Assembly (NCBI GenBank): GCA_019057815.1
Contig: JAHLWR010000019.1
Location: 3,400-67,399 of the forward strand
Direction: 5' to 3'
DNA from: Candidatus Heimdallarchaeota archaeon
GTDB taxonomy: Archaea; Asgardarchaeota; Heimdallarchaeia; Heimdallarchaeales; Heimdallarchaeaceae
Length of the DNA stretch: 64,000 nucleotides
The notes beneath the pieces are model-generated. The model was given only the letters and a program-made list of their open reading frames with translations, was not told where the DNA came from and searched no databases. The number at the start of each line of letters is the position of its first letter. Position 1 is the first letter of the stretch. A program made the translations under genes and the position numbers. Shown piece by piece: positions 14,251-48,916 of this stretch.

Positions 14251-15123
14251 TTAGTTTCTTTTAGAGGTTGTTATTATATCTAAATAATATCGTGAAAAAA
14301 GTACTTTTAGTCCTTTAGGTAAATAGGGATCAAATGGTTTTTTTGTGGATAATAGTTCACCATTCCATTTGAAAGTGTTAGGTTTGTAAAAAAAACTTTG
14401 TTTAGTCCATTCGACATATCCATTTCTGTAAACAAAACCTTGTTTATACGGATTATAAGGACAAAGATCATTATCAGCAAGAGCAATATGCTCTAAAGCT
14501 GGACATTTAGCTAAAGGGTATAAATCTATAGTTTTTAGTTTGTTACGTTGGATGTCAATTTCGGATAAACTTGAGCATCCTTCCAGAGGTTTTAAGTCTA
14601 TGGCTCGAAGTTTATTGTTATCAAGTCTGACATACCTGAAAGAGGTACTATCAGCAATAGAAGGTAAGGTAATTTTAGTTAGTTGGTTTTCTTCAAAAAA
14701 AATTCCCAGTAAGTTTGGGCTGTTGCTTAAAGGAGTACAATCTACACAAGTCAGTTGATTCCAATTGAGAGAGATAATTTCTAGTGTAGGGTGATTTTCA
14801 AAAGGGCTTAAATTTATGTTTGTTAATTTATTTCTTGAAAGATCGATTTTTTTTAGTTTTGGGCATTTAGCTAAAGGAGCTAGACTTATACTTGTAATTT
14901 TATTACCTGAGAGGTCAATCTCTTCCAAATTAGGACAGTTGGCTAAAGGTCGAAGATTGATACTTTTCAAGTGATTATAAGAGAGATTCAAAGTCATTAA
15001 TTTTTTACTCTCCTTAAAACCACTAAAATCGACTCTATCCAGTTGTTTGTCATTATAATCTACATGGTAAGGATTATATCCATACTCAAATCTTTCAACT
15101 CTTTTACCTTTTATTTTTGACAA
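14251..15123 (-). CDS. Leucine-rich repeat (LRR) protein
   Basis: It has about nine 22-24-aa repeats of the form LxxLxLSxNxLxxIxLxPLxxCPxL. No signal peptide is visible. Confidence 0.85.
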   Translation of the reverse strand: MSKIKGKRVERFEYGYNPYHVDYNDKQLDRVDFSGFKESKKLMTLNLSYNHLKSINLRPLANCPNLEEIDLSGNKITSISLAPLAKCPKLKKIDLSRNKLTNINLSPFENHPTLEIISLNWNQLTCVDCTPLSNSPNLLGIFFEENQLTKITLPSIADSTSFRYVRLDNNKLRAIDLKPLEGCSSLSEIDIQRNKLKTIDLYPLAKCPALEHIALADNDLCPYNPYKQGFVYRNGYVEWTKQSFFYKPNTFKWNGELLSTKKPFDPYLPKGLKVLFSRYYLDIITTSKRN

Positions 15124-15529: not shown

Positions 15530-18500
15530 TCAATAAGTTTTTTTGCCAAACATTCCTCCAGCACCCCAGAAATCTACATATTTCATGATACAATGAGCCC
15601 AGTTAGTAGTATCATCATCATAATCATAATCATCTATTTTATAAGGTCCTTTATCCTGTGCATCTTCATACTTGTGTGCTTGTTCATAAGGTTTATCGAA
15701 ATTTTGTGCAGCTATGTCAAATTGTCTGAAAAGTTCAGGGGGGCGTCCATCAAAACATAAAGCTTCAGGAACAAGATAACGTAAATTTTCTACTCTATTA
15801 AAAATTTTCAAACTACTAATTGTTGGGAGAGTGTTCAAGTTTATTTCTACCTTAAAAGTTCCTGCTGTTTCTGTTTCTTTAGGTTTAATTTCTATATATC
15901 GTAAGTATCTGATGCTCCTATCCTGCTTATATTCTAATTTTTTATCTTTAATAAATGAACAATAATCGTCTAATTTTTCTACCATACCGATAAGTGCAAT
16001 AGAATCGATAATCTCTCTGTCAGATAAACCTTTCAAAGATATAGCAGGCTTGTTATTATGCGGTTTTTCATGGTCGATATTTATATACATTAACTCTAAT
16101 GCTTTTCTAGCAGCGTTTAAAGATTTTCCCCTTACACCATCCAAATCATTAATAAGATTTATTAAAGAGCGGTCTGTATTTTTATATTCTTCAAGATTGG
16201 TTGTAGGCCACCTTATTTCCGAATTATCGACTATCTTTCCACCTAATTTAGTAATAAGAGATTTTAAAGTATCTACATTACACTCAAATTTGTTTAGATT
16301 TATTATAAAAGCTCTCTTTCCTCGGTCTCCTTTTTCTACGAAGAAAATTTTAATACCCGCACCACTTTCTATTATTGTCACCATCTTGTTTTTTAGTAAA
16401 GGTTTGAGATAGGCATTATTGTTAAAATGGTCGAGAACGCGTTTATATAGTATATCTCTAGCGGTTTTCCCATCTTTGGGTGTAATGTCCTTTTTTATGT
16501 TATTAACAAAATCAACATTGTTTTTTTTGCTTATCGAATCTCTGAATTTTTGATAAAAGGAGCTGTACATTAAGTATTTAGTATAAGTTTTTGACGCATG
16601 TTCGTGTATAAGATTGACTCTATTAGCTCTGAACCTTGACGCATAAGGTCGATATTTTTGTAACATATCTTTTAAAGAAACACTAGGGTCTTTAATATCT
16701 TTATGTATATAGCGTGTATAAATATCGGTTATCAAAGAGCTTTGGAAGTAATCTATACCGTCAGCAGCGTTTGTACGATAACGCCAAGGATCAGTCTCTT
16801 TACCTAACAGACCTTCTTTTTTAAGTCTTAAATATGCACCATCGCCACCCATAACAACCTTCCTAGCATTAGTATTTTCTTTGAAGGCATCAGTTAAGAA
16901 ATCCATATGTTTATCATAAAGACTAATAGCATCGTCAAGGTCTAATATAGATGAATCCATAACATTGCAGTGTTTGTAACCAAGATAATAAGGATTGAAA
17001 ATTGTTTCCTCCACTCCTATTTCGGTATCAATGTCAAATTTGAGTGTGGTTTTAGTATAACAGTCGATTTTAGGGGCATTATTAAGATCCTTATAGTACT
17101 CTATTGTATCCGATAGTCTTGCAATCACAGCATCAGATTTACATCTAGGATCAATACCCATGTTTTTTATGAGGAGATTGTAAATAGATTCTATCGTTTT
17201 GCTCTTAGTACCAACATCAGTTTCGCTACTTGTTATATCTTTTTTCAGTTCTTCCATCTTTTTTATAGCTAAACTAATATCCACCCATTCATAAGAGACA
17301 GAAATTTTAGTTATTCCATCCACTGTTTTAGTATCTGTTTTCAAGTAAGGAACATTGTTGGTTGTTAAAAGGGAATAAAGAAAAACTCTCTGATATCTAT
17401 AGGATAAGTCATTAGGGTGTTTATCCGTTTTGTAATCACAACCCATAATCCCGCGTTTGAAGAAAAGTTTAATCATACCATCTATTTCATCTCCCTTCAT
17501 ATCTCTAAGCGTCAAATAAGCCCCTTTTATAGAGTCTATTTTAACGTGATCGTAACTGAGAGGTGAGATAAGAATAGTTTTAGAAGGAGAAGGATCAACA
17601 CCTTCAGGAGCAGGGAAGTTCCTACCATCCAGATAAACCATTTCGAATAAATGAGGTTTAGTGGGGTCATTTACTGTCTCTGAGGTATATTTTATTATAG
17701 ATGTTGATAAACCGTCAGAGTCTGTTTCAATGTCTATGCCTGTACCCAAGCAGTTTTTACCTGTGTTAATCCCCTCTACCTCATCCTTATTTATGAAAAC
17801 CTCTAACAAAGGTCTGGTGTATAACTTGTAATCATCATGAATTCTTTTAATATCCTCAAAGTCGACAATATAGTTACTTCTTACACCATCTTTATTGACC
17901 ACAAAACAAATAGATCTAATAGGTTTATTACCAATCTTAGGTTGAGGTACATTTACCATAAAAGCAGCTTCTATATATGTATTTTCCCCCTCAAGTTCTC
18001 CTTTAAACAGTGAGTTTTTATATGTTAGAAATGTCTTGAGTGTGTCAGTGTTAACTGAAACATGATAAACTTCATCTATATCGATTAAAGTAGTACCATC
18101 TCCATCTTTGTAACCCATATTGTGAAGTTGTCCTCTTCCTGATGCATCGATAACTTCTGCTGAAAAAACATCTTTAAGGAATACGAGGTTAACAGTTAAT
18201 CCAGAGATAAGCATAATCTCGAGTTGTAGCTTTAAAGCTAGCCTTTTCGCTGTTTCGAAGTCAGTTTTTAGGCCATTACTTTTCTCGTCTATAGTTCTAG
18301 TAAAAGTATTTAACAAACGCATAAGATTAAGTTCATTAAATTCTCGTTTATAACCAGTTCCTTTTTCATATCGGATGAACTGTTCAATTTGGTCTTTAGT
18401 CATAATATCTATACTTAGAAGTTTACCCTCACTATCTACAAAATAATTAGGGATGAATTTCCTTTTTATAAGCGTAGCGAGGGTTGACATATCCCGACCA

Positions 18501-21500
18501 AGGCTAGACTGTACGTTTGCTGATGATACAACATTCATACCTTCCCAAAGCCTATTATTCTTGAATTCCCAAGCCCCATGTTTTGTTACCATGTCAAAAC
18601 CTTGGATATTAAGAATCAATTGACGGTAGTTAGTGTCATCAATTGATCTAGGGCCTTTAGGTGTTATATAGTCTATATTCATATCTATAGGCCCCCAATC
18701 TTTATCTTTGAAAGTTATACCTTTATCTGCATCATATTCTATTTGGCTCACATCGAATTTGAATATACCATTAGAAGTAGTTATAACACCAACATCATCG
18801 ACAGAATTTCTATCAGGTCCAAAAACAACAGGTAAAATAACTCCACCAGCACCCATCAACGTAAGCTGTTCTTGTAATTCTTCCCAAATTATAGCAGCTT
18901 TCTTTTTAGCACCATTACCATCGGTGGGTTTGGGATCATCTTCAGTATGTGTATTTAAACGTTTTTTAAGTTCATCGTTGGCCCATTTCATAACAAGATA
19001 AATGTCAAATTTTGTTGCACATTCAACAAGTTCACCAACAGTCTCTTTAGGAACAGCTCTAAAACGTTTTAGAGCATCTTTGCTTACAAGTCTATCATCC
19101 ATTAAATCTTGGAAAGTTTTAAGATGTTGAATAAAAGCAGGATATTTAGTGACTGGATTACCATTCTCATCTATAGTGATTATACCTTCGGACTCTATTA
19201 TTTTCTTAGCAACAATATCAAGTTCTTTTAGAACATTCTCACCGAGAATGTTCTTAGGACTAATATTCTTATCAAGAGCCATTAAAGCGAGTATTAGAGA
19301 TGTTTGTAAGGTATTCACTTGTGAAGAGGTTCTACCTGGAACAGCATAATTGAAGAAACCATTTTTAAAACTGTCAATAGCTTTCATTTTAGCATCTATA
19401 GAGGTAACAGTAGATCCCGTGTAACGGGTATGCATTCTATCGATATGATCATTACTAATAAATGAAAAACCATATGTTAATCTAGCAATATTAAGATTGG
19501 TATCAACACCTGTTTTTCCTGTAACGGTAGAATCAGGGGGGATAGTGTCTGTGTCTGTAAGAGAGTTTTTAACCATAACCTCACTAGATGTTACTTCATT
19601 CATCTGCGAAAAGAAGGTTGACGGAGTGAGTATCTTAATGAAATTATCTAAACGCCCGTCTTTTTCTAGAGTAACGATTTTAGATAAACTTGTAGCGAAA
19701 ACCTCGAAAAGAGCAAAAATTGAACCTAATCGTTGTTTTTTAATTAACATCTCAAGAGATAGAATACTTGCAAGAAAGTCTGGTAGACGAGCAAAAGCTC
19801 TATTAGATTTGATAAGAGCTTTTCCGAAAGATTTCATAAACAACTTCATTGAACCTTGGAAAGCACCCCAAGGAAGGAAAACAGTATATTCAAGATAACT
19901 CCAAGCTTGACGAAGAGACGTGTGTATATTAATTATACTCTTTTGTTTAGTAGCAAATTCAATCATTGATAGTTGGTGACCCAAAACATCATCGACTAGC
20001 TTTGCATTCCTTGAGGAGGCTTTTATGCTATTGCGAAGAAGGCTTACACGAGTGAAAATATCTACAATGTCCATAGGTATTTGGATACGTGACAATGCAC
20101 GGAAGAAACTGTTTTGAACAATGATTGAATCTCGAACATCTTCATAAAGAGCTATGACTGGGAAAATGTTGCCTATCATTTCAATAGTGGTGAGAAATTC
20201 CAGTTCAGTGATACCAAATTGGATGTAAATTTGGTCTATAGAAAGTTTATAATGTTTATCGAGACTAATAAGCCACTTATAGGAATCTCCATCAGCTGTA
20301 CTTGTACCATCCCAAACAGCTATAACAAGGTAGTGATCGTCAAAACCAAGAGGTTGGATATTAGACGCCATCATTTCCTTAGTGTAAACACCTATGCTAT
20401 AAGGACCATATTTGAGGAACTTACTCTTAAACCAGAGGAAGATGTTAGAGTCTCTTTCACACATGTTATAAGCTTCAGGTTGGTAATTAGGAGAAGTAAC
20501 CCAATCACGCATGTTAGCCAGATCGGAATCGGTAGAATTAACAACAGCATCAGCGTATGCACTATCAGCAAAAGGCAATTTAGAATTTACATTGCTTATG
20601 GTTTTTGTGGAAAGGTGGTTAAGATAAGCGTCCCAAAGATAATCAAATTCCAAAATACTATGAGTACGGGTACATTTGTCTTTATCTAATACAGTATAAG
20701 ATTCACTTGCCTCACCAGTATAGTATGAAAGGGGTATGCCTGCTCCTTCACTGTTACCTAAAATAAGAGCCCAAAAGAACATAAAAGCGCTGTGGAATTT
20801 AACATAAGCATAATCAGTACGTTGTTGAAGCATTTCTCCTTTATCACCACCAGTAGCACCGAGACTAAAACCTGTCATCATCCTCCAGAAGAATTTGATA
20901 ACATTCCAAGCGATACGCAAAGCTTTACTGACAAAACTCCAGATTTTATACCAAGTGCTATGAGTAGGTGAGTCCTTGAAAGGATCATAAGAACCTTGAA
21001 TAAGGTCAAAAATACCTTCCATCCAGTCGGTAAACCGGTCTTCCATACCCTTGAGATTGAAAACATCACGTAGAACACGGACATCGATATAATTTAATCC
21101 TGAAACATCTACATCTAAAAGCTTAACTTGGTCTTGGGTATTATAGTCAGCTAAATTAAGACATTGCCACTTAATTTTACCATCCTCCATATAATAACTA
21201 GAGTAATCGACAGCGTCTCCGACATCTAATTGTTCTTCTTGATTGAAACATTGGATAATAAGCTTTTCAAACCATTCAGCGAAAGAAGATTTAGTAGGAT
21301 CAAAATAATCTGCGTCTTCATAAGTTCCAGAGAGAGATAAAGGAATCTCATAAGGTAGATCTATTTTAGATTGAATTGCTTGAATAGTTGCAGGGTTATC
21401 AAAAACGCCGACGTAAGTACCAGAATAATCAGGATTGTCAAGATTGTTAGAATAAATAGTGAAAGAGCCAGAGGAAGTTATATATGTTTTCTTGTATTTA

Positions 21501-24500
21501 TCAGCATCAGCTTTAGGAATAACTTCAATATATCTGTTATGAAGTGTCCAGATAAAATCATTATCATTAGCAGTTATAATAATCTCAGTGTTTATACCAA
21601 CTGTACGAATGATCTCTGTTTCAACATCAGTAGTAGCATTAGTAAACGTGAAGTAATGTGTAGTGGAATCTGTTTCGCTATCAAGGTTTAGTAAGTCAAT
21701 ATATTGGTTTGAATATTCATTGAAACTAAGATATCTTGTTATCTCAGGGTCACTTTGATGAATGTCATCACCAACATAATCTCCTTCCATAAGAGTGTAA
21801 CCATCAATATTATATCCTTCAGCAGTAAAGTTTCCATGTATAGCTGGATCATAAATAAAATTGGCTCTAGATTGACCTAAACCATCTAGTATAATCTCTG
21901 TATCACCAACTAAATAACAAGCGGTATTAGTTGAAGAGCTGGAAGTAAGGGAAAGAGCACCCAATTCAGAATTAATTTGAGATATTTCTTCCTCTGATAG
22001 AATAGGTGCTGCCGGAGCAGTAAGCATTTCATAACTACCATTAACGTCAGGTACAGTTCTAAACCACCATCTACCTGCAGTGATAGAATAAGTATTCATA
22101 TAGTTATTATTAAAACCTTCATCAATCTTAATGGCAAAGTTCATGTTAAAGAGTACATAACTGGCAAGAGGTACACCTGTTCCTCCGTCATATATTTGAG
22201 GAATACCTAAATTATCTTCATCTTCTTCGTCAAGTCTATAATAACTTTCAACCTCAAGTTGAGTTTCAAAATCACTGGCACCTAAGAAGTAAATACGGTA
22301 AGTATGGAAACCACCAAGGTCATCCCTGAAGAACCCACCTGCAAGGACATGTTCATTATCAATAATACTTGTTCCACCAGCAACCTCGTCAAAAGGCTTA
22401 CTTTCGTACATTAACGTATCTAATCTGGAAAGAACAACGTTATAATTAACTCTAATAGGTGAAGGTTCGAGAATTTCAAAAACCTTATCCATTCGATTCT
22501 TAAGTCTAATACTGATATTAAGAGGTTGAGAAGTGTCTGTGATTTGAACTAACATTAATATTCGATGGAAACCCTTAGAATCGATGCCAAGTTTATACTC
22601 GTAATACGTTTCTAAATCTTGATCTCCAGTTAAATCATCGTAAGGATTGTTACGAACAACGTAATCACCCTCCATCCAATTCATAGGTCCTGGATCAAGA
22701 CGTGGACGTATTAAATCAATTCCTAATCTTCCTCTATAGTCATCGTAGCCTTGGGTGTAAACAGAAGGAATAGCATAGCGATTTAATAAGGGGATGGTTA
22801 AAGTGTTAGAACTAGTATCTACTTCATTGAAAATAGAATCCTCATTTTGTATCAATTGGTAACCATCGATAGAAAAGAGTTTGATATCAAACCCAAAGTT
22901 ATTGTCTAATCCTTTTTGTATAATAAGTTCAGCGTCTTCGAGATCTTGAGCGTAATAGAGATTAGTGTAAAGAATAATGTAATCTTCAGCACTAGGTATA
23001 AATTTTATATCAGATCCAAAGTCAATATAGAAAGTATCTTCGTCATTTTCTAATTGATTAAATTCAAGGTTGCCATAGGGTGTTTTGAGTCTGTCTCCTT
23101 TTTTAGGACAGATATCATTGATTAAACCTATCAATCCTTCAGTATTATGCAAAACTTCAGAACCAAAAGGTTGGGTATAAAGCCATTGAGTAATGTACTC
23201 GTTTTGCTGGAAAACACTTCCACCAATAGAAATATCCCCAAAAGCAATATACGAAATATGCATCAAATGGTTAGGATTATCACTAGGTCTAACAATTTTG
23301 AACAAGATAGGAGAAGTACCTCCATGAACGTTGATAGGGATAAAAGCGTTATTACGCTTGAAATCGCTTTTAGTATAAATAGCTATACCAGACTGATAAA
23401 TTGTGAAAGGTAAGTCACTGTCAATTTCAATAAAAATTGTTTCAGCAGCGAAAGAATCAGCATAAATCATGAAGTAGTAATTATCAACGGTATTAGGTTC
23501 AATAGCACGTTCAAAAATCGTATCGATGTCAATAACACCAGTTTCACCTAGTTCTTTAATTTTCCATAGAGCAGAAGTTTGTTCCCCTTCAGAAGAATCA
23601 ATAGTGATCTTACTTTCACTTGAGGGAAATTCGCCTATGGTTGATCTTTCGAGAGAGTATTTGAAATCTGCAAATAGTAAAGATTCAACCATCTCTTTAA
23701 GTGTCTGGATATTTGGCATAATCTTAATTACATCAAAATTAAATGTTCTTGTAGGATATTTCAAGCTTAGATTATCAATCGTTGAAGTTTCTCCATCATA
23801 AGCAGGTATATGTGCTAAAGCTTGATATAAATCTATTTCAAAATACTGCCATTTCTCTTTATCTTCTAAGAGAGTAAGGGGGAAAGATGCAGTTATATAT
23901 ATGTGATTATCCACATCAACAGTATAAGTAGCCGAACCTTCATACCAGATACTCTTTTCTCCAAAAGTAAACTCGAGCTCTATGTGTTGATTTCCTCTAC
24001 AGAGTATTTCTTCAATAACTATTTTTCCTTTACCTTTAACGAATCCAGAAAGGGTTAAACCTTCTTTAACGTCTATAGTATCTAAAATATATTCAATTAC
24101 ACCACTATCTTGTACGAAAACAGGATTAATAATAGCATTATTTTCCGTTACTTCTGAATAATCCCCTGAATCTGGATCTATTGTAGAAATGATATCTTTC
24201 CATTCCCTCTGTTCTTCAAGATTGTAAGTTTCAGCGGTATACAATATATCAGTTACGGACTCTCTAGTAGCGAGCGAGAAACCATAGACAGAAGTAAGAC
24301 CTTGTGAAATAAATCGCAATTTAAGGATGTTATTAGGTGAGTTTCCAATAACGTTTAGGTTGATAGGATAGCGATGGTACTCAAGATTGGGGAAAGGAGA
24401 AGATTGTGTCCATGTATCTCTTAAAATGTAATTGTCATTAATTATTATTGTAATGTTACTTAAACCATCTTGAATCGAGCAACCAATAATAGTCAAATAA

Positions 24501-27500
24501 AGATTAGTTGTGTAAGCATTGATAGATATTTTCCAATAGCCACCTTTAACAGTTATTTCCCAATTATCCTCAAAATCCTTCTGAGTGCTGAAATATTCGA
24601 TATAGTTGAAAACTTGGATGTTATCGTAATGGACGCTACCTATGGAATTGGATAAAGTAAAACGATATTCACCTGAACCAACAACCACAGAGGTATTGAA
24701 ACTATATTCATCTTCATTAATAACTAGAATGAAATCTCCTTCTCTGATAGTAACATTGTTTTCGTCAATAATATCAACAATTGGTGAATAATAATAGTTT
24801 AAAGAAATATGGTTCCATTCATGTTCTTTGATAATATCACCACTAGTGATTTGAAGTAAAAGATCACTGTTGTTGCCGAAAAGAACACCATTGTGAGTGA
24901 TTTTAATGTAGCCGACAGTTATCCATTCATTGATAGTGTCGTTATAATATTCATTAGTGATAATTGTTTCAAAGTCGGTTGAGGGCATAAAGTCCATGCT
25001 CCATTCAGGACCGGATGAACCATCTTCAGTAGAATAAACAAAATTTACACTACCAGTGCAGTTAAGCATTTGATTTGTATTATATCTAAGATAATAATCA
25101 CCTAATTCTCCTTGACCATTCATTGAAGGAAGTTGAGTGAGAATCTCATCATCTTCATAGTGGAAGGTGTTAGAGAATATACTATGAACGAATAATAAAC
25201 TTCCACCCACGCTTATGTAAGGCTTAATTCCTGTAGTATCAAGGTTGTTGGTAGTAGTATCAATTCTAACTTCAATATAATTATCTAAATCGATAATCTC
25301 ATCCCATTTCCATATCCAGAAACGCATAATGTGAGTAGTTTCATCATATTGAAGCCTTACAAAGAAGTTCTTATATGTAGATAAATGTGATATAACTTCA
25401 AGGTTATAATATGTATGGTCTTCGTCTACTTCCCCTACAGCGACAGAATCACTACTCCGCCACTCGTTATAAAAGGAACTATAACCGAATTTCATACCAG
25501 TATAGTAGTAATTCGAATAGGGGTCGACTTTAGCTAATCCTATCTCGATACTGTTATCTAAATCTTCTATGTTCATAGCGAACATATCCAAATCAAATGT
25601 TATATCTATGTTACCTGAAAGCTTATCTACAAATCTGAATTTACTATTGGGGTACATTATCAACGAATCAGAATAACCTGTCCCCATGCCCGTTGTACCA
25701 CTCCAAGAGTAATCTCCTTCAAGTTCTTGTATTTCTTCTTCATCAAAAGAATCAGTTATAGGAATGTAATCTATATAGGTAAATTGATCATTACCAAAGC
25801 CAACAGTAAAACCAAAACTTCCATCGTTATAGATATTGTTTAACCTATATTCTTCCGAATCAGTGAAATATGCACTATTTTCAAATGCAACTTTATGGTC
25901 ACCATGTAAAGGTATATAGTTTGGGTGTACGTATTCAAAACCGTATTTATCATTTGTGCCTTCTATGATATACTCTGTATGAACGTTTGCGTTTTCCATA
26001 ATATCTTTAGTAAAGGGAACGTTCTGCATCGAACCGTAATACTGATTGTAATAATACCAGTTTAAACCTTCATTATATCTAGGACTATCACAGTAAATGT
26101 TGATAAGATATTCATGGACTGTATCTCTTGAAATTAATATCTCAAAATTAATTATTATTTCTTCACTTGCTGGAAAAGCACCTAGTAAAGCATTACCAAT
26201 GTAAACATATGTGATATCTTGATGTTCAAGTCTATGTTCATTATTACGATTGTTTATGTCATTAGTGTCATATTTTATTGTCCATTCACGATCTTCATTA
26301 TGACCATAATGTAGAATTTTTATTCTTAGAATCTCAGGTTCGTTTTCCCCTGGAAGTATTAAAGCACCAGATGTAAATAAGACGTCTGTTGGTAAGTCAT
26401 TTGAAGACCATTTGTCAATCTTAAATTCAGCTTTTAAGAGGAATTTATCTGCTATTGGCCCATCGTAATTAACGATTCTGTGAGGAAGATCGTCATTAAG
26501 AAGGATATAATCAACCGCTTGACCATCAGGCTCACCTTTCAATTCACCTAAATAACCATGACCACCAAAGGACATCCATTCGTTGTAGTGGTGCATATAA
26601 TAATTATAATAGTGTCCATAGTAACCACAAGATAAATAGAAACTATTCTGTTCCCAGAAATCTTTTGTGTCACTATCATAAAGCCATTGTATGCCTTTAG
26701 GTCCAGAATCAATAGAATATGGGCTTGTAAAGTCATATGGACTTTTATCAAGAATTGACCAGTCTCCACCAATAGCATTTGAACCATCAAGCGACAGATA
26801 AGAACTAGGTGTGTGAGTGAAGAAAGTTAAATATAAACTGTCAATAGTAGACGCATATCCCCAATCTTGATTATTAATGTAAATATTTTTAGTTGATTGA
26901 AAAGAGACTTTGTTTAATTCTGGTAGAGTACTGTTTGTTAATTTTTTGTGAATATAATTATGGACTTCAGTAAGTGTATGATCACCAAATAATTGGTTCC
27001 ATCCATTGGTTTCGGTTTCTAAGGTGAGTCTACCACAACCATATACTAAATCTAAGTAATATTCTGAAATATTCAAATTAGCGTTAAGAATAGGTTCAAT
27101 CCTTGTTCCAATAGGAAGATTGAGGTAATCTGCTGATGAAAAACTATCTTTATACATTTGTGTAAGTGTAGGAGTATTTATCTCAAACTCACTATATTCC
27201 AATAAAGATAATTCTTCTCCATTATAGTTAGGAAAGAGTTTTCGGTTAACTGTCCAATCCATATCATAAGAAATGGGAGCAGCTCCAAGGGCGAGAAAAG
27301 TTTGAGTAAACAGAGGATATTTATTAAGATAATTGATAAGTGAAAGATCATCGTCATCTACAAAAGGATTTGTTAAGTAATTTTTATCCTCTTTTGTCCC
27401 ACCTAGTAAAATGTCGTCACCAAATGAAACAGTAAATCCCTCAAAACTACCACAAGTGCTAGGATAATTAAAATGCTGTTTTTCCTCAAAATCGTATAAT

Positions 27501-30500
27501 AATGAATAAGCTACATTGTGCCTATAATCGTCATCATCAATCATTGGGTTACCATAATAGGGTCTACCGTAATTTATTGTTATTATGTAATCATTATCAT
27601 AATAGATGTAACTAGTGTCGAAGGGTAAAGCAGAATAGGTGACATTATCAATAACGTTTGGAGACCATGTATCTTCGATAGACCAAATTATTTTACAATC
27701 AGGAATAGAATCTTCAAAAGGTCCATCGTCCTCTGTGATTTTGAAGAGTTGACCTTTAAGTTTTATATTATAATTTTCATTAACTGTATCTCCATAGATA
27801 TAATCATGTATATTATTTCCCATGTCATAATACTCATAATAACCTTGAGAAAGTTTCTTTCTAAGTGTATCAACAAAATCCAATTCTATCAGAACTTCTC
27901 CGTCTCGAGCATCATTATCAAGATTAGAAATACTAAAACTTAATTCCAATATAGTTGCTGCTGGTGACAGATAATTTGGAAGAAGTGGAACCCTAGAAGT
28001 ATAATCTTGTTTGTATGATTCAAGTATTTGATCTTTGTTATATTTCCAAGGTTGATTTGTATTAGAAATGAATAAAGGTGCTAATCCATCTCGTTCTTGT
28101 AAGAACCAAGATAAATCTTCAAGGGATAAATCATAATCATCGTTATTTAGAAAATCTACCAATTTATCATCTGAAGTATATGGGTTGTGAATATTAGGGT
28201 TATCTAATCTTTCTATATAAAAAGGACTAAAATCTGTGAGTAAAATATTAGAAATATATGGTGCGTAATCTTTGTTATTATAATCATCAAATGTTTCAAC
28301 GTTCTTGATTCTGTATACATGAATGTTTTTGAAAATAACAGGGTGAGAACATTGGTAACTATCGAAAATTATCTTGACGAGTTTTAAAGAACTATCTTCT
28401 ACTCTTCCATCACCATCAGGATCTTCTCCAATGATGTTTGCAAGTATGAAACTTTTAGTTAAACTATTATCGTGAATGTTATTAGGATTGATGGTAAATT
28501 CATATTGATTACCCTCATTATCTTCAAATGTCACTTTTGTTGCATTAAGTGGGTTAGTGGAGTAAATTTCAAAATAAATATAGGGAAAATGACTATGATC
28601 GATAGGAATGTTGAGATCCTCAAGAGTAACTGAACCAATAAAAGCAGCGAGATTGCCTTCAATTGGGGTAATAATAGCATTTGAAACGTCATCCCAATCC
28701 GTTAGTTGCTGGAATACACCGTCAACTAGAATATTTTCAACTAAAGGTTTGTGAAGAGTGTAATAAGCGTCTTCCTCCCAAACATCAAATTGAGTAGTCG
28801 ATTTAGCTTCATTAGTATTGAAATCTAATTGCCAAACATTTTCGAGATTGTGGTCGGTATAATCAGTATGAGCTATCGCACTACTAGTAATGGGACGAGT
28901 GAGAATGTAATGGATAGTAACATTTTCATAAGCATCATGTGGATGTTGAAGCACTATTTCATAGTCCCCATAACTGAAATCTAGAAAAATTACGTGTCCA
29001 AAGACCTTTTCTTCATTTTCAGTCCAAGTAATAGTTCCTTGGAAAGAGTAAGGCTCAGCACTAAACAGTTTTCTTGTATAGACATCGATTGATATTCTAG
29101 GTAGAATGTTGTCTACAAGTACTCCCACTTCAAATAGACATGGTTCTCGAATATTAATATCGTAAGATGCAATAAAATTATCAGGAGTATTAGTCTCATA
29201 AGAGTAAGACAATGTATCCTCTACCATCTCACTCGTTACTCCCTTGTCGAAATAGTTGATAGGATTGATTTTAGTATTAAAAGGGTTAATACCCAAAACA
29301 AGCATTGGTCCAAGATATACAGGACTCTGTAAAGGACGAGGATCATTGTTAATGATACTAATCTGTAAATATTCCAACCTTCTCAAATCTGGAGTTTTAA
29401 AGTGTAAGTAAGAATCTTTATTGGCTAGAACGTCTTTAACACCTAAAGATTCTACTGTTGCAATACCAAAAAGGTCAAAAACTGTATGAGTTACTTCAAC
29501 CTTGATGTTTTGTTGAGATTTAATCAACATGATAAAACGAGATGAATCTCTTCTAACAGGCCCAGAGACACTAATCGATTTAAATTCAATAATTTGGGCT
29601 TTAGAGTTTGTAGAGCATTTTGAGAAGAATCCCATATTTCCTCCAATGGCCATTCCACCTAAAGAAGGAGTATAATAGTATTCCTCACCATTTAGAGTTA
29701 TTAAATATGCGTTATAACCAAAGGTTGTTTCAACACTGATGGTATTATCTTTCAGAAGATTATAATCAGAATTGAGAAATATTATTTCATCTATAGCGTC
29801 ATTTACATAGATGAAAATAGCAGGTTTATCATTGGTTCTACCTATTCCAACCTTGATATTCCTGTAACCACTTATCGATATACCTGCAATAATATCGTAA
29901 GAAGATAAATTGAAAACAAGTGATGTGTAGAAATCACCAACATTGACATCTTTTCGCACAGCTTCGCAACTTTCACTTACCGAAATACCGGAAAGTTCTA
30001 AATCTTCGAAAATAGCTACATCTTCAGTAGTATAGTTATTCTGAATAAGTTCTGTAGTTAAGTAATCTGCGTATCGAAGTTGATCGTTTTCAATAAAGTA
30101 AGTAGCAAGATAACCTTCTCTATCTGTAGCTAGAGCGGGATAATATTCCCCAAAGAACGTTGTAATGTCATAATATGCGTGATTGTTAGAATGGATAAAT
30201 TCCCAAGGAGAAAATTCCTCGCTAACAGGATCAGAATAACCGTTAGTGAAAATGTTTGCTTGATAAATAACAATGTCTACACCGTCAGTACAGTCTAGAC
30301 GAGTATCGGGCGAACTAAAAGAGAACTCAAATTTGAGTCTTTGACCACAATAATCTGTGAGTGAAAAAGTGTTGAAAGCAGGATAATTCCAGCTTTCGTA
30401 AATAGTGTAAGAACTTAATATTTCTCCATATTGTTGTTCAGGGTCATCAAGATTGAAGATTTTAATTGTATATGTATAATTATATGTTTCATATTCATAA

Positions 30501-31222
30501 CTTACAGGAGTCATTACATCAAAGAAGAAAGAGAAGTTTACTATGGGTTGCCAAGGGATATATACTCCTGGACTCTCCAAAATTATCTTGTTATCCCAAA
30601 GAGGAACTTTTATTGTTTTTGTGTAACTCCAACCATCTCCCCAATCAGTATCTGTAACCGCACCATGGTTTTCAAATGTAAAACCATCAGTTAGAAAATC
30701 ATGATAATATCTGTTGGGAGTATAAAGTTTAATTGAACCTATCGACATATAACCCGAAAGTTCTATACGCATAGAATCGATACCAGCAATGAGATATCCA
30801 GGAATTTGAATGTGGACTGTGCTTGAATCGATATTGTTTTTCGTTAGTGTGTATAGAACTCTTTTAGTGTTTCCATCTTGAAGAGTGATTGTTGATCCAC
30901 TTGAAAGTTTGGTTGTAGCGATATTTTCTATTAAAAGCCAAACTTCAGAAGTTATATCACGTATGACATCAAAATTGTTAGTTATGGCAATTTGTCCATC
31001 TTTGACAACAATTTTAGAACTATATTCCCTAACATTGAAAGCACCATTCCAATTATTTCTTGAATATTCTTCATTATCGAAATCATCGATAAAGAACCAT
31101 ACTTTGTTATGAGCTGAACTGGGACCGGTAGCTAGTATAGAAAACATCTGTAAAAGAAATACAGAGATTAAAATTGCAGATAAAATTTTATTTTTTGATT
31201 GTTTTTTTAACCATTCGTTCAT
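15530..31222 (-). CDS. Giant protein (~5230 aa) with an N-terminal signal/anchor, a ~3400-aa acidic Tyr/Asn-rich ectodomain, a hydrophobic region and a ~1740-aa Lys-rich C-terminal module
   Basis: It is a single uninterrupted ORF. The likely start is the ATG at 31220-31222, which overlaps the upstream TAA as TAATG, with GGAGGA 7 nt upstream; the track start at 31237 is a TTG. The N-terminal hydrophobic segment is ILSAILISVFLLQMFSILATGPSSA. Modules end in motifs such as IGSIKLY, FKNIHVYRI and YDNIQVFNY. Confidence 0.85.
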   Translation of the reverse strand: MNEWLKKQSKNKILSAILISVFLLQMFSILATGPSSAHNKVWFFIDDFDNEEYSRNNWNGAFNVREYSSKIVVKDGQIAITNNFDVIRDITSEVWLLIENIATTKLSSGSTITLQDGNTKRVLYTLTKNNIDSSTVHIQIPGYLIAGIDSMRIELSGYMSIGSIKLYTPNRYYHDFLTDGFTFENHGAVTDTDWGDGWSYTKTIKVPLWDNKIILESPGVYIPWQPIVNFSFFFDVMTPVSYEYETYNYTYTIKIFNLDDPEQQYGEILSSYTIYESWNYPAFNTFSLTDYCGQRLKFEFSFSSPDTRLDCTDGVDIVIYQANIFTNGYSDPVSEEFSPWEFIHSNNHAYYDITTFFGEYYPALATDREGYLATYFIENDQLRYADYLTTELIQNNYTTEDVAIFEDLELSGISVSESCEAVRKDVNVGDFYTSLVFNLSSYDIIAGISISGYRNIKVGIGRTNDKPAIFIYVNDAIDEIIFLNSDYNLLKDNTISVETTFGYNAYLITLNGEEYYYTPSLGGMAIGGNMGFFSKCSTNSKAQIIEFKSISVSGPVRRDSSRFIMLIKSQQNIKVEVTHTVFDLFGIATVESLGVKDVLANKDSYLHFKTPDLRRLEYLQISIINNDPRPLQSPVYLGPMLVLGINPFNTKINPINYFDKGVTSEMVEDTLSYSYETNTPDNFIASYDINIREPCLFEVGVLVDNILPRISIDVYTRKLFSAEPYSFQGTITWTENEEKVFGHVIFLDFSYGDYEIVLQHPHDAYENVTIHYILTRPITSSAIAHTDYTDHNLENVWQLDFNTNEAKSTTQFDVWEEDAYYTLHKPLVENILVDGVFQQLTDWDDVSNAIITPIEGNLAAFIGSVTLEDLNIPIDHSHFPYIYFEIYSTNPLNATKVTFEDNEGNQYEFTINPNNIHDNSLTKSFILANIIGEDPDGDGRVEDSSLKLVKIIFDSYQCSHPVIFKNIHVYRIKNVETFDDYNNKDYAPYISNILLTDFSPFYIERLDNPNIHNPYTSDDKLVDFLNNDDYDLSLEDLSWFLQERDGLAPLFISNTNQPWKYNKDQILESYKQDYTSRVPLLPNYLSPAATILELSFSISNLDNDARDGEVLIELDFVDTLRKKLSQGYYEYYDMGNNIHDYIYGDTVNENYNIKLKGQLFKITEDDGPFEDSIPDCKIIWSIEDTWSPNVIDNVTYSALPFDTSYIYYDNDYIITINYGRPYYGNPMIDDDDYRHNVAYSLLYDFEEKQHFNYPSTCGSFEGFTVSFGDDILLGGTKEDKNYLTNPFVDDDDLSLINYLNKYPLFTQTFLALGAAPISYDMDWTVNRKLFPNYNGEELSLLEYSEFEINTPTLTQMYKDSFSSADYLNLPIGTRIEPILNANLNISEYYLDLVYGCGRLTLETETNGWNQLFGDHTLTEVHNYIHKKLTNSTLPELNKVSFQSTKNIYINNQDWGYASTIDSLYLTFFTHTPSSYLSLDGSNAIGGDWSILDKSPYDFTSPYSIDSGPKGIQWLYDSDTKDFWEQNSFYLSCGYYGHYYNYYMHHYNEWMSFGGHGYLGELKGEPDGQAVDYILLNDDLPHRIVNYDGPIADKFLLKAEFKIDKWSSNDLPTDVLFTSGALILPGENEPEILRIKILHYGHNEDREWTIKYDTNDINNRNNEHRLEHQDITYVYIGNALLGAFPASEEIIINFEILISRDTVHEYLINIYCDSPRYNEGLNWYYYNQYYGSMQNVPFTKDIMENANVHTEYIIEGTNDKYGFEYVHPNYIPLHGDHKVAFENSAYFTDSEEYRLNNIYNDGSFGFTVGFGNDQFTYIDYIPITDSFDEEEIQELEGDYSWSGTTGMGTGYSDSLIMYPNSKFRFVDKLSGNIDITFDLDMFAMNIEDLDNSIEIGLAKVDPYSNYYYTGMKFGYSSFYNEWRSSDSVAVGEVDEDHTYYNLEVISHLSTYKNFFVRLQYDETTHIMRFWIWKWDEIIDLDNYIEVRIDTTTNNLDTTGIKPYISVGGSLLFVHSIFSNTFHYEDDEILTQLPSMNGQGELGDYYLRYNTNQMLNCTGSVNFVYSTEDGSSGPEWSMDFMPSTDFETIITNEYYNDTINEWITVGYIKITHNGVLFGNNSDLLLQITSGDIIKEHEWNHISLNYYYSPIVDIIDENNVTIREGDFILVINEDEYSFNTSVVVGSGEYRFTLSNSIGSVHYDNIQVFNYIEYFSTQKDFEDNWEITVKGGYWKISINAYTTNLYLTIIGCSIQDGLSNITIIINDNYILRDTWTQSSPFPNLEYHRYPINLNVIGNSPNNILKLRFISQGLTSVYGFSLATRESVTDILYTAETYNLEEQREWKDIISTIDPDSGDYSEVTENNAIINPVFVQDSGVIEYILDTIDVKEGLTLSGFVKGKGKIVIEEILCRGNQHIELEFTFGEKSIWYEGSATYTVDVDNHIYITASFPLTLLEDKEKWQYFEIDLYQALAHIPAYDGETSTIDNLSLKYPTRTFNFDVIKIMPNIQTLKEMVESLLFADFKYSLERSTIGEFPSSESKITIDSSEGEQTSALWKIKELGETGVIDIDTIFERAIEPNTVDNYYFMIYADSFAAETIFIEIDSDLPFTIYQSGIAIYTKSDFKRNNAFIPINVHGGTSPILFKIVRPSDNPNHLMHISYIAFGDISIGGSVFQQNEYITQWLYTQPFGSEVLHNTEGLIGLINDICPKKGDRLKTPYGNLEFNQLENDEDTFYIDFGSDIKFIPSAEDYIILYTNLYYAQDLEDAELIIQKGLDNNFGFDIKLFSIDGYQLIQNEDSIFNEVDTSSNTLTIPLLNRYAIPSVYTQGYDDYRGRLGIDLIRPRLDPGPMNWMEGDYVVRNNPYDDLTGDQDLETYYEYKLGIDSKGFHRILMLVQITDTSQPLNISIRLKNRMDKVFEILEPSPIRVNYNVVLSRLDTLMYESKPFDEVAGGTSIIDNEHVLAGGFFRDDLGGFHTYRIYFLGASDFETQLEVESYYRLDEEDEDNLGIPQIYDGGTGVPLASYVLFNMNFAIKIDEGFNNNYMNTYSITAGRWWFRTVPDVNGSYEMLTAPAAPILSEEEISQINSELGALSLTSSSSTNTACYLVGDTEIILDGLGQSRANFIYDPAIHGNFTAEGYNIDGYTLMEGDYVGDDIHQSDPEITRYLSFNEYSNQYIDLLNLDSETDSTTHYFTFTNATTDVETEIIRTVGINTEIIITANDNDFIWTLHNRYIEVIPKADADKYKKTYITSSGSFTIYSNNLDNPDYSGTYVGVFDNPATIQAIQSKIDLPYEIPLSLSGTYEDADYFDPTKSSFAEWFEKLIIQCFNQEEQLDVGDAVDYSSYYMEDGKIKWQCLNLADYNTQDQVKLLDVDVSGLNYIDVRVLRDVFNLKGMEDRFTDWMEGIFDLIQGSYDPFKDSPTHSTWYKIWSFVSKALRIAWNVIKFFWRMMTGFSLGATGGDKGEMLQQRTDYAYVKFHSAFMFFWALILGNSEGAGIPLSYYTGEASESYTVLDKDKCTRTHSILEFDYLWDAYLNHLSTKTISNVNSKLPFADSAYADAVVNSTDSDLANMRDWVTSPNYQPEAYNMCERDSNIFLWFKSKFLKYGPYSIGVYTKEMMASNIQPLGFDDHYLVIAVWDGTSTADGDSYKWLISLDKHYKLSIDQIYIQFGITELEFLTTIEMIGNIFPVIALYEDVRDSIIVQNSFFRALSRIQIPMDIVDIFTRVSLLRNSIKASSRNAKLVDDVLGHQLSMIEFATKQKSIINIHTSLRQAWSYLEYTVFLPWGAFQGSMKLFMKSFGKALIKSNRAFARLPDFLASILSLEMLIKKQRLGSIFALFEVFATSLSKIVTLEKDGRLDNFIKILTPSTFFSQMNEVTSSEVMVKNSLTDTDTIPPDSTVTGKTGVDTNLNIARLTYGFSFISNDHIDRMHTRYTGSTVTSIDAKMKAIDSFKNGFFNYAVPGRTSSQVNTLQTSLILALMALDKNISPKNILGENVLKELDIVAKKIIESEGIITIDENGNPVTKYPAFIQHLKTFQDLMDDRLVSKDALKRFRAVPKETVGELVECATKFDIYLVMKWANDELKKRLNTHTEDDPKPTDGNGAKKKAAIIWEELQEQLTLMGAGGVILPVVFGPDRNSVDDVGVITTSNGIFKFDVSQIEYDADKGITFKDKDWGPIDMNIDYITPKGPRSIDDTNYRQLILNIQGFDMVTKHGAWEFKNNRLWEGMNVVSSANVQSSLGRDMSTLATLIKRKFIPNYFVDSEGKLLSIDIMTKDQIEQFIRYEKGTGYKREFNELNLMRLLNTFTRTIDEKSNGLKTDFETAKRLALKLQLEIMLISGLTVNLVFLKDVFSAEVIDASGRGQLHNMGYKDGDGTTLIDIDEVYHVSVNTDTLKTFLTYKNSLFKGELEGENTYIEAAFMVNVPQPKIGNKPIRSICFVVNKDGVRSNYIVDFEDIKRIHDDYKLYTRPLLEVFINKDEVEGINTGKNCLGTGIDIETDSDGLSTSIIKYTSETVNDPTKPHLFEMVYLDGRNFPAPEGVDPSPSKTILISPLSYDHVKIDSIKGAYLTLRDMKGDEIDGMIKLFFKRGIMGCDYKTDKHPNDLSYRYQRVFLYSLLTTNNVPYLKTDTKTVDGITKISVSYEWVDISLAIKKMEELKKDITSSETDVGTKSKTIESIYNLLIKNMGIDPRCKSDAVIARLSDTIEYYKDLNNAPKIDCYTKTTLKFDIDTEIGVEETIFNPYYLGYKHCNVMDSSILDLDDAISLYDKHMDFLTDAFKENTNARKVVMGGDGAYLRLKKEGLLGKETDPWRYRTNAADGIDYFQSSLITDIYTRYIHKDIKDPSVSLKDMLQKYRPYASRFRANRVNLIHEHASKTYTKYLMYSSFYQKFRDSISKKNNVDFVNNIKKDITPKDGKTARDILYKRVLDHFNNNAYLKPLLKNKMVTIIESGAGIKIFFVEKGDRGKRAFIINLNKFECNVDTLKSLITKLGGKIVDNSEIRWPTTNLEEYKNTDRSLINLINDLDGVRGKSLNAARKALELMYINIDHEKPHNNKPAISLKGLSDREIIDSIALIGMVEKLDDYCSFIKDKKLEYKQDRSIRYLRYIEIKPKETETAGTFKVEINLNTLPTISSLKIFNRVENLRYLVPEALCFDGRPPELFRQFDIAAQNFDKPYEQAHKYEDAQDKGPYKIDDYDYDDDTTNWAHCIMKYVDFWGAGGMFGKKTY

Positions 31223-46205: not shown

Positions 46206-46753
46206 ATCGAATCACCATACCAATTAATTAACTCTGTAGCACAAGAATGTTGTCCACCTAAAAATGAACAAATGCTCAAGTGTTCTGTGTCCCCAACAAA
46301 TAGATTTAGGGAGAATGAAGGAAGGTTCATATTTTCTGATAACCTATTTATTACACCAAACCCTCCTTCCTTACACTCTTTTCCCTTTTCACGCATGTAG
46401 CAGGGGGAATAGTGGGGAGAGAAGAAATTGTAAAAATTAAAGAAACAGTCAATACCACATTCTTGCTCTTCCCAGAAATACACAGTTGACGTGAACTGTA
46501 CGAACTTAAAATTCTCAAAAAAGTTAAGTTGAAAATGTGTTCTTAAATAATTATAAAAGTTGCCATCAAACTGTTTTGAAACAATTTTGTTTTGAGTTTT
46601 CATTGTTGTCATACTTCTTTGTTTGTAGGAAGATAGTTTGACGGAACCTTCGTTATAATTACTAGTTGAATAAAAAGTTTCATATTTAAAGGTGGTAAAA
46701 TTTTTTTCTTCCAAAAAACCCTCAGTATTTGTGTAAAAACTCTCTAAAAACAT
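46202..46753 (-). CDS. Cys/Phe/Tyr-rich hypothetical protein (183 aa), no signal peptide
   Basis: The ORF sits 4 nt after the ATPase gene and overlaps the protease start by 4 nt. It contains CGIDC, SPC, ECKEGG and SICSFLGGQHSC. I recognised no family. Confidence 0.5.
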   Translation of the reverse strand: MFLESFYTNTEGFLEEKNFTTFKYETFYSTSNYNEGSVKLSSYKQRSMTTMKTQNKIVSKQFDGNFYNYLRTHFQLNFFENFKFVQFTSTVYFWEEQECGIDCFFNFYNFFSPHYSPCYMREKGKECKEGGFGVINRLSENMNLPSFSLNLFVGDTEHLSICSFLGGQHSCATELINWYGDSI

Positions 46754-47916: not shown

Positions 47917-48243
47917 ATGTCAAGGTATTTAATGGGTTTGGAGCAAAAGTCAGCTTTACAAGTATTAGAAACATTGCTAGAATTGGGAGGAAAGACGAAT
48001 GTCTCAACATTAATTAATTCCGTTATTGGTGGTCAGAAATCAGTCTATTCAGCTATTAACGTTTTAGAGGATTTAGAACTGATTAAAAGCGAGCAGAAGA
48101 TAATACGCGGAAGCAGGTATATATATTTAACTTCAATTGGTGAACAAATAGCATACAAAATAATCGAAATAACGACAATATTAGAATCTCAGAAATTTCA
48201 AAAAAGAGAAAAAAAAACTAAAATTTACAGTTATGATTGGTAA
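47917..48243 (+). CDS. Small winged-helix DNA-binding protein, divergent from the ATPase operon
   Basis: 108 aa. The pattern LQVLETLLELGGKTNVSTLINSVIGGQKSVYSAINVLEDLELIKSE fits HTH plus wing, followed by a basic tail. Confidence 0.55.
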   Translation: MSRYLMGLEQKSALQVLETLLELGGKTNVSTLINSVIGGQKSVYSAINVLEDLELIKSEQKIIRGSRYIYLTSIGEQIAYKIIEITTILESQKFQKREKKTKIYSYDW

Positions 48244-48697: not shown

Positions 48698-48916
48698 AAC
48701 TTTTTCGACTATTTATTTATTGAAAATTGATTATGTTTTCATCTTTTTTTATTTAGGTTTATATAGTATTTAATGAAATAATCAATGAAAACTAACTCTT
48801 GGGAAGATATGAAAATCCAGACAGAACTCTTAAATAGGTATATGGTTTCTTATCTATTTGAGTTAACCTAAAAAACTATATCCAAAGGGTTGAAAGCAAA
48901 AAAGGAGCTAATCTTA

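Follow-up and report, generated by a model that had tools for sequence, protein, structure and literature searches.

The DNA analysed here is a stretch of 64,000 nucleotides (nt), referred to below as the window, of contig JAHLWR010000019.1 from a Candidatus Heimdallarchaeota archaeon (GCA_019057815.1, positions 3,400 to 67,399). On its minus strand lies a gene for a protein of 5,230 amino acids (aa), called here the giant. The giant consists of two parts. Its long N-terminal part falls in the composition class of the secreted proteins of this genome, and its C-terminal tail of ~1,840 aa falls in the class of the cytoplasmic proteins. The tail is joined to the first part without a convincing membrane span and is nearly free of N-X-S/T sequons; hydropathy and sequon statistics indicate that it is probably exported too. 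The best explanation, which we favor tentatively and which is possible rather than probable, is that the tail is a membrane-engaging and possibly delivered cargo, perhaps released by the anchored S8 protease of the operon.

The giant gene occupies positions 15530..31222 (minus strand, stop codon at 15530-15532) within an open reading frame (ORF) at 15530-31237. The ATG at 31222 is the probable start. It overlaps the stop codon of the upstream gene in the sequence TAATG, and GGAGG is seen 9 nt upstream. Residue numbers are counted here from the TTG at 31237 (5,235 codons); numbers counted from the ATG are smaller by 5. The protein begins with a Sec-type signal peptide (31115..31222, minus strand), in which a basic n-region precedes a hydrophobic core (aa 18-36) and a cleavage motif resembling SSA↓H. 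It is followed by an acidic, Lys-poor and Tyr/Asn/Asp-rich ectodomain of ~3,350 aa (21053..31114, minus strand), which is delimited by composition and contains no known domain. The tail can be divided into three segments, all on the minus strand: the junction domain of ~400 aa (aa 3396-3800, 19838..21052), the mid-tail (aa 3801-4594, 17456..19837), which is Lys-rich, fast-evolving, of mixed alpha/beta character and almost sequon-free, and a conserved C-terminal module of ~640 aa (aa 4595-5235, 15533..17455), which reaches the extreme C-terminus. No internal repeats were found anywhere in the giant by self-BLAST (E<=10), and the tail is not homologous to ordinary surface repeats, a possibility that had been raised in an earlier note on this DNA.

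The earlier note had described the protein as bipartite, and the composition statistics bear this out. In 200-aa windows, Lys is ~3.5% before aa 3400 and 7-13% after it. At the same shift, Tyr falls from 7.4 to 4.6% and the net charge changes from ~-9 to ~0 per 100 aa. A multinomial change-point scan places the break at aa 3350, within a broad peak at 3200-3800, with a log-likelihood ratio (LLR) of 61.3. The null maxima are 28 for residue shuffles and 32 for shuffles of 100-aa blocks. The N-terminal part as a whole has 3.7% Lys and an isoelectric point (pI) of 4.29, and the tail has 8.7% Lys and a pI of 6.06. The description of the first part as Lys-poor and Tyr-rich therefore holds. The tail had been called rich in Lys, Glu and Leu; this is correct for Lys, but Glu is lower in the tail than in the N-terminal part (5.0 vs 6.7%) and Leu is only slightly higher (9.0 vs 8.1%).

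The two compositions correspond to two classes of proteins encoded by the same genome. Eleven secreted proteins contain 1.2-4.4% Lys and have pI values of 4.05-5.5, all but one at or below 4.6. Among them are NosD beta-helix paralogs, the S8 protease and both neighboring giants, which are uniform over their full length. Clearly cytoplasmic enzymes contain 7-10% Lys. The median of 42 non-hydrophobic ORFs from the window and related Heimdall loci is 8.7%, which is the value of the tail.

The same Lys shift is present in P0076, a partial protein of 2,719 aa from a separate Heimdallarchaeaceae metagenome-assembled genome (MAG; GCA_054383135.1), which was found with a 1,835-aa tail query. P0076 is colinear with aa 1824-4521 of the giant, including the junction, at 42% identity. 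The break is therefore not an artefact of assembly or gene fusion.

The cytoplasm-like tail could be taken to lie inside the producing cell. The earlier note had proposed a type I giant, in which one of two hydrophobic stretches at the junction spans the membrane and a cytoplasmic tail of 1,740 aa couples the external part to the MinD/ParA ATPase of the operon or to the cytoskeleton. The tail composition, indistinguishable from that of same-genome cytoplasmic proteins, fits such a proposal. So does the opening of the operon with cytoplasmic proteins (the ATPase and a 183-aa protein). Marginally hydrophobic helices sometimes insert, and some bacterial giants are predicted to have C-terminal transmembrane (TM) segments and intracellular regions.

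The two stretches do exist, within a few bases of where they had been placed, but they are moderately hydrophobic and not of TM grade. The first is a cationic amphipathic helix rich in Trp, Phe, Lys and Arg (aa 3430-3464, 20846..20950, minus strand). The second is a short hydrophobic helix with the core AFMFFWALILG (aa 3481-3503, 20729..20797, minus strand). The judgement of membrane spans is based on two scales, Kyte-Doolittle and Hessa-type. The Kyte-Doolittle 19-mer maxima of the stretches are 0.97 and 1.21, against 2.44 for the signal peptide. Their Hessa-type sums are above +5 for the first and +4.95 for the second, whereas the signal peptide has -1.1 (19-mer), the C-terminal anchors of the neighboring 2,566-aa protein and the S8 protease have -2.0 and -1.2, and the true TMs of the 2,566-aa, S8 and 360-aa proteins range from ~-2 to +0.7. 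Both in the window giant and in P0076, the junction stretches score like buried segments of the ectodomain. The sole TM-grade segment of the giant is its N-terminal signal peptide.

The first stretch contains the most amphipathic 18-mer of the giant, FVSKALRIAWNVIKFFWR (aa 3435-3452), with a hydrophobic moment (muH) of 0.72, the highest among 5,218 windows (mean 0.20, standard deviation 0.11). The second-highest hydrophobic moment is found at aa 3800-3817, the opposite end of the junction domain. In the second stretch, the hydrophobic core of 11 residues is followed by acidic residues (NSEGAG...EASES), and the flanks do not obey the positive-inside rule. The first stretch is nearly invariant in P0076, and the second is conserved there.

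Sequon counts separate the tail further from the cytoplasmic proteins. In aa 3396-5235, only two N-X-S/T sequons are observed (positions 3567 and 3991), against 13.5 expected by shuffles (z = -3.6; observed/expected ratio, O/E, 0.15). None of 1,000 block shuffles had two or fewer, and the Poisson P is ~1e-4. Control motifs in the tail are at expectation: S/T-x-N 11/13.8, N-S/T 18/14.2, N-x-x-S/T 15/13.9 and D-x-S/T 17/21 (observed/expected). The tail of P0076 shows 2/10.4, while its ectodomain, serving as an undepleted control, shows 14/15. Three further homologs of the C-terminal module, P0072, P0073 and P0074, show 1/3.2, 1/5.1 and 0/4.2. These three and the two tails together have 6 sequons against ~36 expected. 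The background O/E is 0.97 for the 42 non-hydrophobic ORFs and 1.10 for 17 signal-bearing ORFs. Avoidance of sequons in the tail, as read from these counts, is new here, and it recurs in every homolog examined.

In archaea, AglB glycosylates N-X-S/T sites on the outer side of the membrane. Because AglB acts outside, counterselection of sequons would make sense only for a polypeptide exposed there, and the depletion thus speaks for a tail that is exported and glycan-free, and against a cytoplasmic location. With an O/E of 0.97, cytoplasmic proteins show no such loss, so that depletion would be left unexplained in a cytoplasmic domain. In addition, both junction stretches are far below TM grade in the window giant and in P0076, the second has an acidic C-flank, and insertion of both as a hairpin would still leave the tail outside. 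Members of the ATPase family mostly occur in housekeeping contexts, with no giants nearby. With these points against it, a type I giant with a cytoplasmic module is highly improbable. We infer instead that the tail is exported. The alternative offered by the earlier note, a distinct secreted module that is possibly an effector, fits the data better, though no toxin or enzyme domain, no cassette polymorphism and no consistent immunity-like gene was seen.

The conservation profile gives the parts of the tail different weights. Identity to P0076 per 100 aa is 45-55% in the ectodomain except for two dips to 33-34%, one of which (aa 3301-3400, 34%, with gaps) corresponds to a linker-like stretch. 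It rises to 55-70% over aa 3401-3700 in the junction, the best conserved segment of the giant (60% over the junction alignment), and drops to 22-35% over aa 3801-4600 in the mid-tail. Because the profile peaks there, the junction (aa 3396-3800) is taken as a functional domain in its own right, and by the same profile the mid-tail evolves fastest. The contig of P0076 (L009) also contains homologs of aa 10-1821 of the giant and, just upstream, of the 2,566-aa gene; the ectodomain identity to L009 is 42-46%. On this contig, the giant homolog is split at ~10001-10029 into ORFs of 1,850 aa and 2,719 aa, at the equivalent of aa 1822. The homolog of the 2,566-aa gene is interrupted as well, and either assembly errors or gene decay could be the cause.

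The C-terminal module is conserved more widely. With aa 4036-5235 as the query, an exhaustive HMMER search of 1.84 billion representatives returned four matches only, all over the last ~640 aa and all cut by contig ends: P0072 (64% identity), P0073 (40%), P0074 (29%) and P0075. A metagenome scan added L010, where a C-terminus of 62% identity is followed by a leucine-rich-repeat (LRR) gene, and L011, where an orphan fragment of ~130 aa (1993-2376) is 59% identical to aa 4720-4849. This fragment is decayed, with GGDG changed to GGGG and a premature stop, and it lies between genes for a 352-aa membrane-anchored protein and a HAD-like protein, both unrelated. In total, the module is homologous in six lineages at 29-64% identity. 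A patch at aa 4795-4838 (16724..16855, minus strand), V.GGDG.Y ... YR.NA....D.....L.TD, is invariant in all five sequences that cover it and is a candidate active or binding site. The extreme C-terminus, DKGPY...W..GG.F, is conserved too. GGDG was considered as an NAD-kinase or DAG-kinase-like motif and found no family support.

From these matches, the family appears real and rare, with ~7 lineages so far confined to the Heimdall group. All homologs of the giant are incomplete at contig ends. Relatives were seen neither in two scans of GTDB genomes, one with the tail alone and one with the junction alignment, nor in a junction-alignment scan of JGI metagenomes. The tail had no match in IMG/VR, PLSDB plasmids or GenBank phages. 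A word-indexed search with aa 236-5235 found nothing, and this proved to be a false negative when the 1,835-aa query later found P0076. The window giant itself never turned up in either of the protein libraries, so that negatives for very long proteins there are untrustworthy.

The conservation data bear on an account that keeps the exported giant on its producer. The junction helices and the tail would form a foot under the ectodomain, with both resting on the outside of the producer's own membrane or on the TM-anchored 2,566-aa partner. The richness in Lys and the lack of glycans would come from close contact with anionic lipid head groups or partners rather than from delivery. Unlike its 2,566-aa and S8 neighbors, the giant lacks a C-terminal anchor and would need another attachment. 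Sequon depletion and export agree with this account equally well, the most amphipathic cationic helices mark the two ends of the junction, and the tail is colinear and vertically inherited. On the other hand, ~1,840 aa is very large for an anchor, the net charge of the tail is near zero and not strongly positive, and nothing shows an interaction with the neighbors. A structural foot would normally change more slowly than the part that it carries, yet the mid-tail evolves faster than the ectodomain. Such a membrane-proximal base is unlikely.

Library and structure searches gave no hint of what the tail does. Pfam, run on the whole giants and on nine 400-aa chunks of the tail up to E=5, had no match, and neither had NCBIfam, PADLOC or PHROGs. 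PDB sequence and profile searches returned chance-level matches only. No conserved Walker A, HNH-like or metalloprotease motif is present in the tail, so the earlier statement that it contains no Walker, HNH, toxin or enzyme motif agrees both with motif conservation and with the library searches. A papain-like triad in the junction (Cys3593/His3635/Asp3660) was rejected; His3635 is replaced by Asn in P0076. AlphaFold2 models have a mean predicted local distance difference test (pLDDT) score of 47 for the C-terminal module (alignment of 5 sequences) and 31 for the junction and mid-tail (2 sequences), and they are unusable. Foldseek against PDB with the better model had a best match of E=0.5. 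Modeling of tail chunks followed by a Foldseek search, the route proposed in the earlier note, thus gave low-confidence models and no structural match. The proposal that the tail is helical, exemplified there by the helix at aa 4011-4062, is weakly supported, as these low-confidence models contain 45-50% helix and 10-15% strand.

The composition of the tail might also have nothing to do with topology. The tail could consist of extracellular domains of another fold class or origin, anciently fused to the ectodomain, and its composition would then mirror fold and history instead of compartment or delivery. The absence of a TM segment and of an effector signature in any library agrees with this. 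The fusion is old enough to be common to proteins of 42% identity, and giant proteins are generally poorly annotated. However, about 11 other secreted proteins of the window, among them the neighboring giants with 4,100 aa, are low in Lys and acidic over their whole length, and an extracellular Lys-rich region of 1,840 aa is thus an outlier in this organism. A sequon O/E of 0.15, kept across homologs of 22-64% identity, would remain unexplained. A fusion of this kind is quite unlikely.

The preferred explanation is that the tail is a cargo that engages a membrane. The whole 5,230-aa protein would be exported through Sec by its N-terminal signal peptide. As there is no stop-transfer segment, the Lys-rich tail would also end outside the producer's cytoplasm. 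The tail, purged of N-X-S/T sequons, would stay glycan-free while passing the external oligosaccharyltransferase. The junction helices would be able to lie in or dip into a membrane, but not to span it alone. It can be conjectured that the ectodomain makes contact, that the junction helices then engage the membrane, and that the unglycosylated tail is inserted into or passed across the engaged membrane. Cleavage by the membrane-anchored S8 protease of the operon might precede this last step. In its strongest form, the conjecture is that a cytosol-adapted, glycan-free cargo of ~1,800 aa is moved into or across the membrane of another cell by the amphipathic-hairpin junction. This would be an archaeal contact-dependent delivery unrelated to known secretion or toxin families, possibly directed onto syntrophic partners, and we consider it a long shot.

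Beyond the composition and sequon data, several observations were counted in favor of the cargo explanation. The signal peptide scores like the true TM or signal segments of the operon and the junction stretches do not, the two highest hydrophobic moments lie at opposite ends of the junction domain, conservation is greatest in the junction and least in the mid-tail, an orphan decayed C-terminal fragment occurs in L011, a membrane-anchored S8 protease is encoded in the operon, and its genes overlap. Other observations weigh against it. No toxin, enzyme or translocation domain was found in the tail with Pfam, NCBIfam, PADLOC, PHROGs, PDB sequence and profile searches or Foldseek, and the two AlphaFold2 models, both of low confidence, give no structural support for a membrane activity. 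Amphipathic helices occur in soluble proteins too. Relatives have a homologous, colinear tail, whereas polymorphic toxins exchange theirs for unrelated cassettes. Only one close relative keeps the LRR gene downstream, at a distance of 340-407 nt. Only ~7 family members are known, most of them incomplete. The ectodomain (20/37) and the 2,566-aa protein (15/31) also have about 2-fold fewer sequons than expected, and part of the sequon signal may be a giant-wide constraint apart from delivery. The giants as a class seem to avoid N-glycosylation. Sequons are enriched in the S8 protease (16/9.6) and in a CarboxypepD_reg protein of the window (16/6.6).

Several known systems resemble the giant in architecture. 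Polymorphic toxins such as CdiA, Rhs and MafB share with it a secretion signal, a long extracellular part, a conserved region before the C-terminus and a faster-evolving, cytoplasm-adapted C-terminal part, and also a nearby protease and an orphan C-terminal fragment, of which one is seen here. The giant differs from them in that filament repeats (RHS/YD, haemagglutinin or others) and known toxin or pre-toxin domains are absent. Its C-terminus is homologous among relatives, and its mid-tail diverges but is colinear rather than cassette-swapped. No consistent immunity gene was found: an LRR gene lies 340-407 nt downstream in the window and L010, and none in L008. Typical toxin domains are several times smaller than the ~1,840-aa tail.

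MARTX and large clostridial toxins are likewise huge polypeptides, with amphipathic or hydrophobic helices between a contact part and a cytosol-adapted cargo that is freed by proteolysis. No sequence or fold similarity to them was found, and glycine-rich MARTX repeats, CPD and glucosyltransferase domains are absent from the giant. The host here is an archaeon, export is by Sec, and the putative protease is a separate membrane-anchored S8 protein. The likeness to polymorphic and translocating toxins is thus architectural only, a matter of analogy.

Giants of Omnitrophota and other bacteria are mostly extracellular and poorly annotated, possibly processed by S8 or C39 peptidases, and they break assemblies; they contain numerous TM helices, SecA-like domains and carbohydrate-binding or carbohydrate-degrading domains (10.1101/2023.11.21.568195). 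The giant of the window resembles them in size, in being mostly extracellular, in poor annotation, in its association with S8 and in contigs that end within genes. It differs in having a single signal peptide and no recognizable domain. Repeat-type giant adhesins, built of Ig, cadherin or beta-helix arrays, differ in that no tandem domain array was found here by self-BLAST or Pfam. The neighboring NosD proteins are unrelated to the giant.

The giant is the last gene of a tightly packed cluster on the minus strand, in the order ATPase, 183-aa protein, S8 protease, 1,551-aa protein, 2,566-aa protein and giant. No mutual resemblance was seen among their products. The overlaps between genes in the operon suggest co-translation. 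The first gene (46758..47609, minus strand) encodes a MinD/ParA-type P-loop ATPase (Pfam AAA_31, CbiA, ParA). The 183-aa protein (46202..46753, minus strand) has no known domain, and its gene shows stop/start overlaps with both neighbors; a homolog comes after the ATPase in L004. The S8 subtilisin-like protease (43491..46205, minus strand; Pfam PF00082, E=1.8e-33) has a signal peptide, a Thr-rich linker and a C-terminal TM anchor. The acidic 1,551-aa protein (38822..43477, minus strand) has a signal peptide and no anchor. The 2,566-aa upstream giant (31222..38922, minus strand) is acidic throughout and has a C-terminal TM anchor with a short basic tail, and no clear signal peptide. Its homolog sits upstream of the giant homolog in L009.

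The 1,551-aa and 2,566-aa ORFs lie in different frames and overlap by 100 nt (38822-38922, minus strand). L009 begins within an open ORF (1-4473, 1,485 codons) that ends where residue 1034 of the 2,566-aa protein would be, and this ORF reaches ~450 codons beyond the start of that protein. The length of this ORF argues that the two are one gene. They may represent a single type I gene of ~4,100 aa that was split by a frameshift, either real or a sequencing error.

As far as its homologs tell (n=71), the ATPase belongs to a Heimdallarchaeota-specific family, since nearly all homologs with a named source are labelled Heimdallarchaeota or Heimdallarchaeaceae. Orthologs of ~60% identity (L005, L006) are widespread in Heimdallarchaeota in a housekeeping context, next to DNA ligase, an IFT52-GIFT-domain protein and V-ATPase, followed by two proteins of ~327 aa and no giants. 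The closest ATPase of Ca. H. endolithica (43% identity; CP084167.1) has no adjoining giant genes. The ATPase was considered as a marker of giant operons and rejected on both grounds, and the housekeeping context of its orthologs makes a functional link between ATPase and giants uncertain. A scan of viral contigs with the ATPase alignment found distant ParA proteins only.

The layout recalls the aloposons of Ca. Heimdallarchaeum (Wu et al. 2022, PMC8813620). These contain tandem genes for proteins of 3,000-6,000 aa (Otus and Ephialtes) and four consecutive upstream genes including one for a MinD/ParA-like ATPase, and they integrate at tRNA genes downstream of the giants. The present locus is alike in its Heimdall-group host and in having tandem giants behind a few genes, one of them for a MinD/ParA-type ATPase. 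The 5,230-aa gene directly follows the 2,566-aa gene (~4,100 aa if fused). The ATPase, 183-aa, S8 and 1,551-aa genes make four upstream genes, or three if the 1,551-aa ORF is part of a giant. The 5,230-aa and 2,566-aa (or 4,100-aa) proteins would then be counterparts of Otus and Ephialtes.

Against this, ARAGORN detected no tRNA gene across the 64 kb of the window, the scanned ORFs of at least 150 aa showed no integrase, and no flanking direct repeats were found. The locus differs from aloposons by lacking a tRNA site or another mobility signature. In relatives, both flanks show synteny (the upstream one in L004, the downstream one in L010), an indication that the locus is a stable part of the chromosome. 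The closest H. endolithica ATPase is not beside giants, and no sequence similarity to Otus or Ephialtes has been demonstrated. No Heimdallarchaeum giant appeared among the search matches, in libraries where the window giant never turned up either and which may lack very long proteins. A bipartite composition and a sequon-free tail are not mentioned in the available part of PMC8813620. That the locus is of the aloposon type is on balance doubtful, and it is not filed as an aloposon here.

Downstream of the giant, at a distance of 407 nt, lies a gene for a 290-aa leucine-rich-repeat protein (14251..15123, minus strand; Pfam LRR_8), the composition of which is cytoplasm-like (Lys 10%, pI 9.2). 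A homolog of 74% identity follows the giant C-terminus in L010 (1807-2625), the spacing range in the window and L010 being 340-407 nt. No LRR gene is found downstream in the more distant L008. The protein could be a binding partner or an inhibitor of the C-terminal module. Upstream of the cluster, a 108-aa ORF (47917-48243, plus strand) is divergent from the ATPase gene. It resembles a winged-helix regulator by eye and might control the cluster.

The window has a G+C content of 29-36% (2-kb bins). Its genes for Ras-family and Arf-family small GTPases (165-755 and 6629-7189), eukaryote-like signature proteins, point to an Asgard (Heimdall) host as far as sequence can tell. An aldehyde:ferredoxin oxidoreductase and LRR proteins are encoded as well. 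The Logan assembly of SRR14803094 contains short contigs from the same organism. The window codes for at least five secreted NosD/right-handed beta-helix paralogs (9786-11609, 51101-52990, 53209-54516, 54535-55359 and 55478-57802), and two small ORFs at 58095-58637 and 58668-59399 are Asn-rich and Lys-poor like the adjoining NosD paralogs. The CarboxypepD_reg protein (48890-50953) has a weak legumain-like (C13) match. The upstream part of this surface-protein-rich region is syntenic in L004.

No closer relatives of eukaryotes are known than the Heimdall-group archaea, which live in close association with other microbes and whose surface machinery has hardly been characterized. Giants beside MinD/ParA ATPases had been reported in the Heimdall group without a functional clue. 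For such a giant there is now an anatomy: a signal peptide, an acidic ectodomain, an amphipathic junction, a glycan-free Lys-rich tail and a C-terminal patch. Lys content and sequon O/E are two sequence signatures that separate compartments in this lineage, and they are applicable proteome-wide. The family can best be regarded as a variant, marked by an unusual conserved signature of composition and sequons, within the poorly understood giant-gene clusters of Asgard archaea. If the tail is not delivered, the locus would encode an orphan surface giant of an ordinary kind, though a clearly delineated one. Delivery of the tail, if it occurs, would represent a new kind of inter-cellular protein transfer in archaea.

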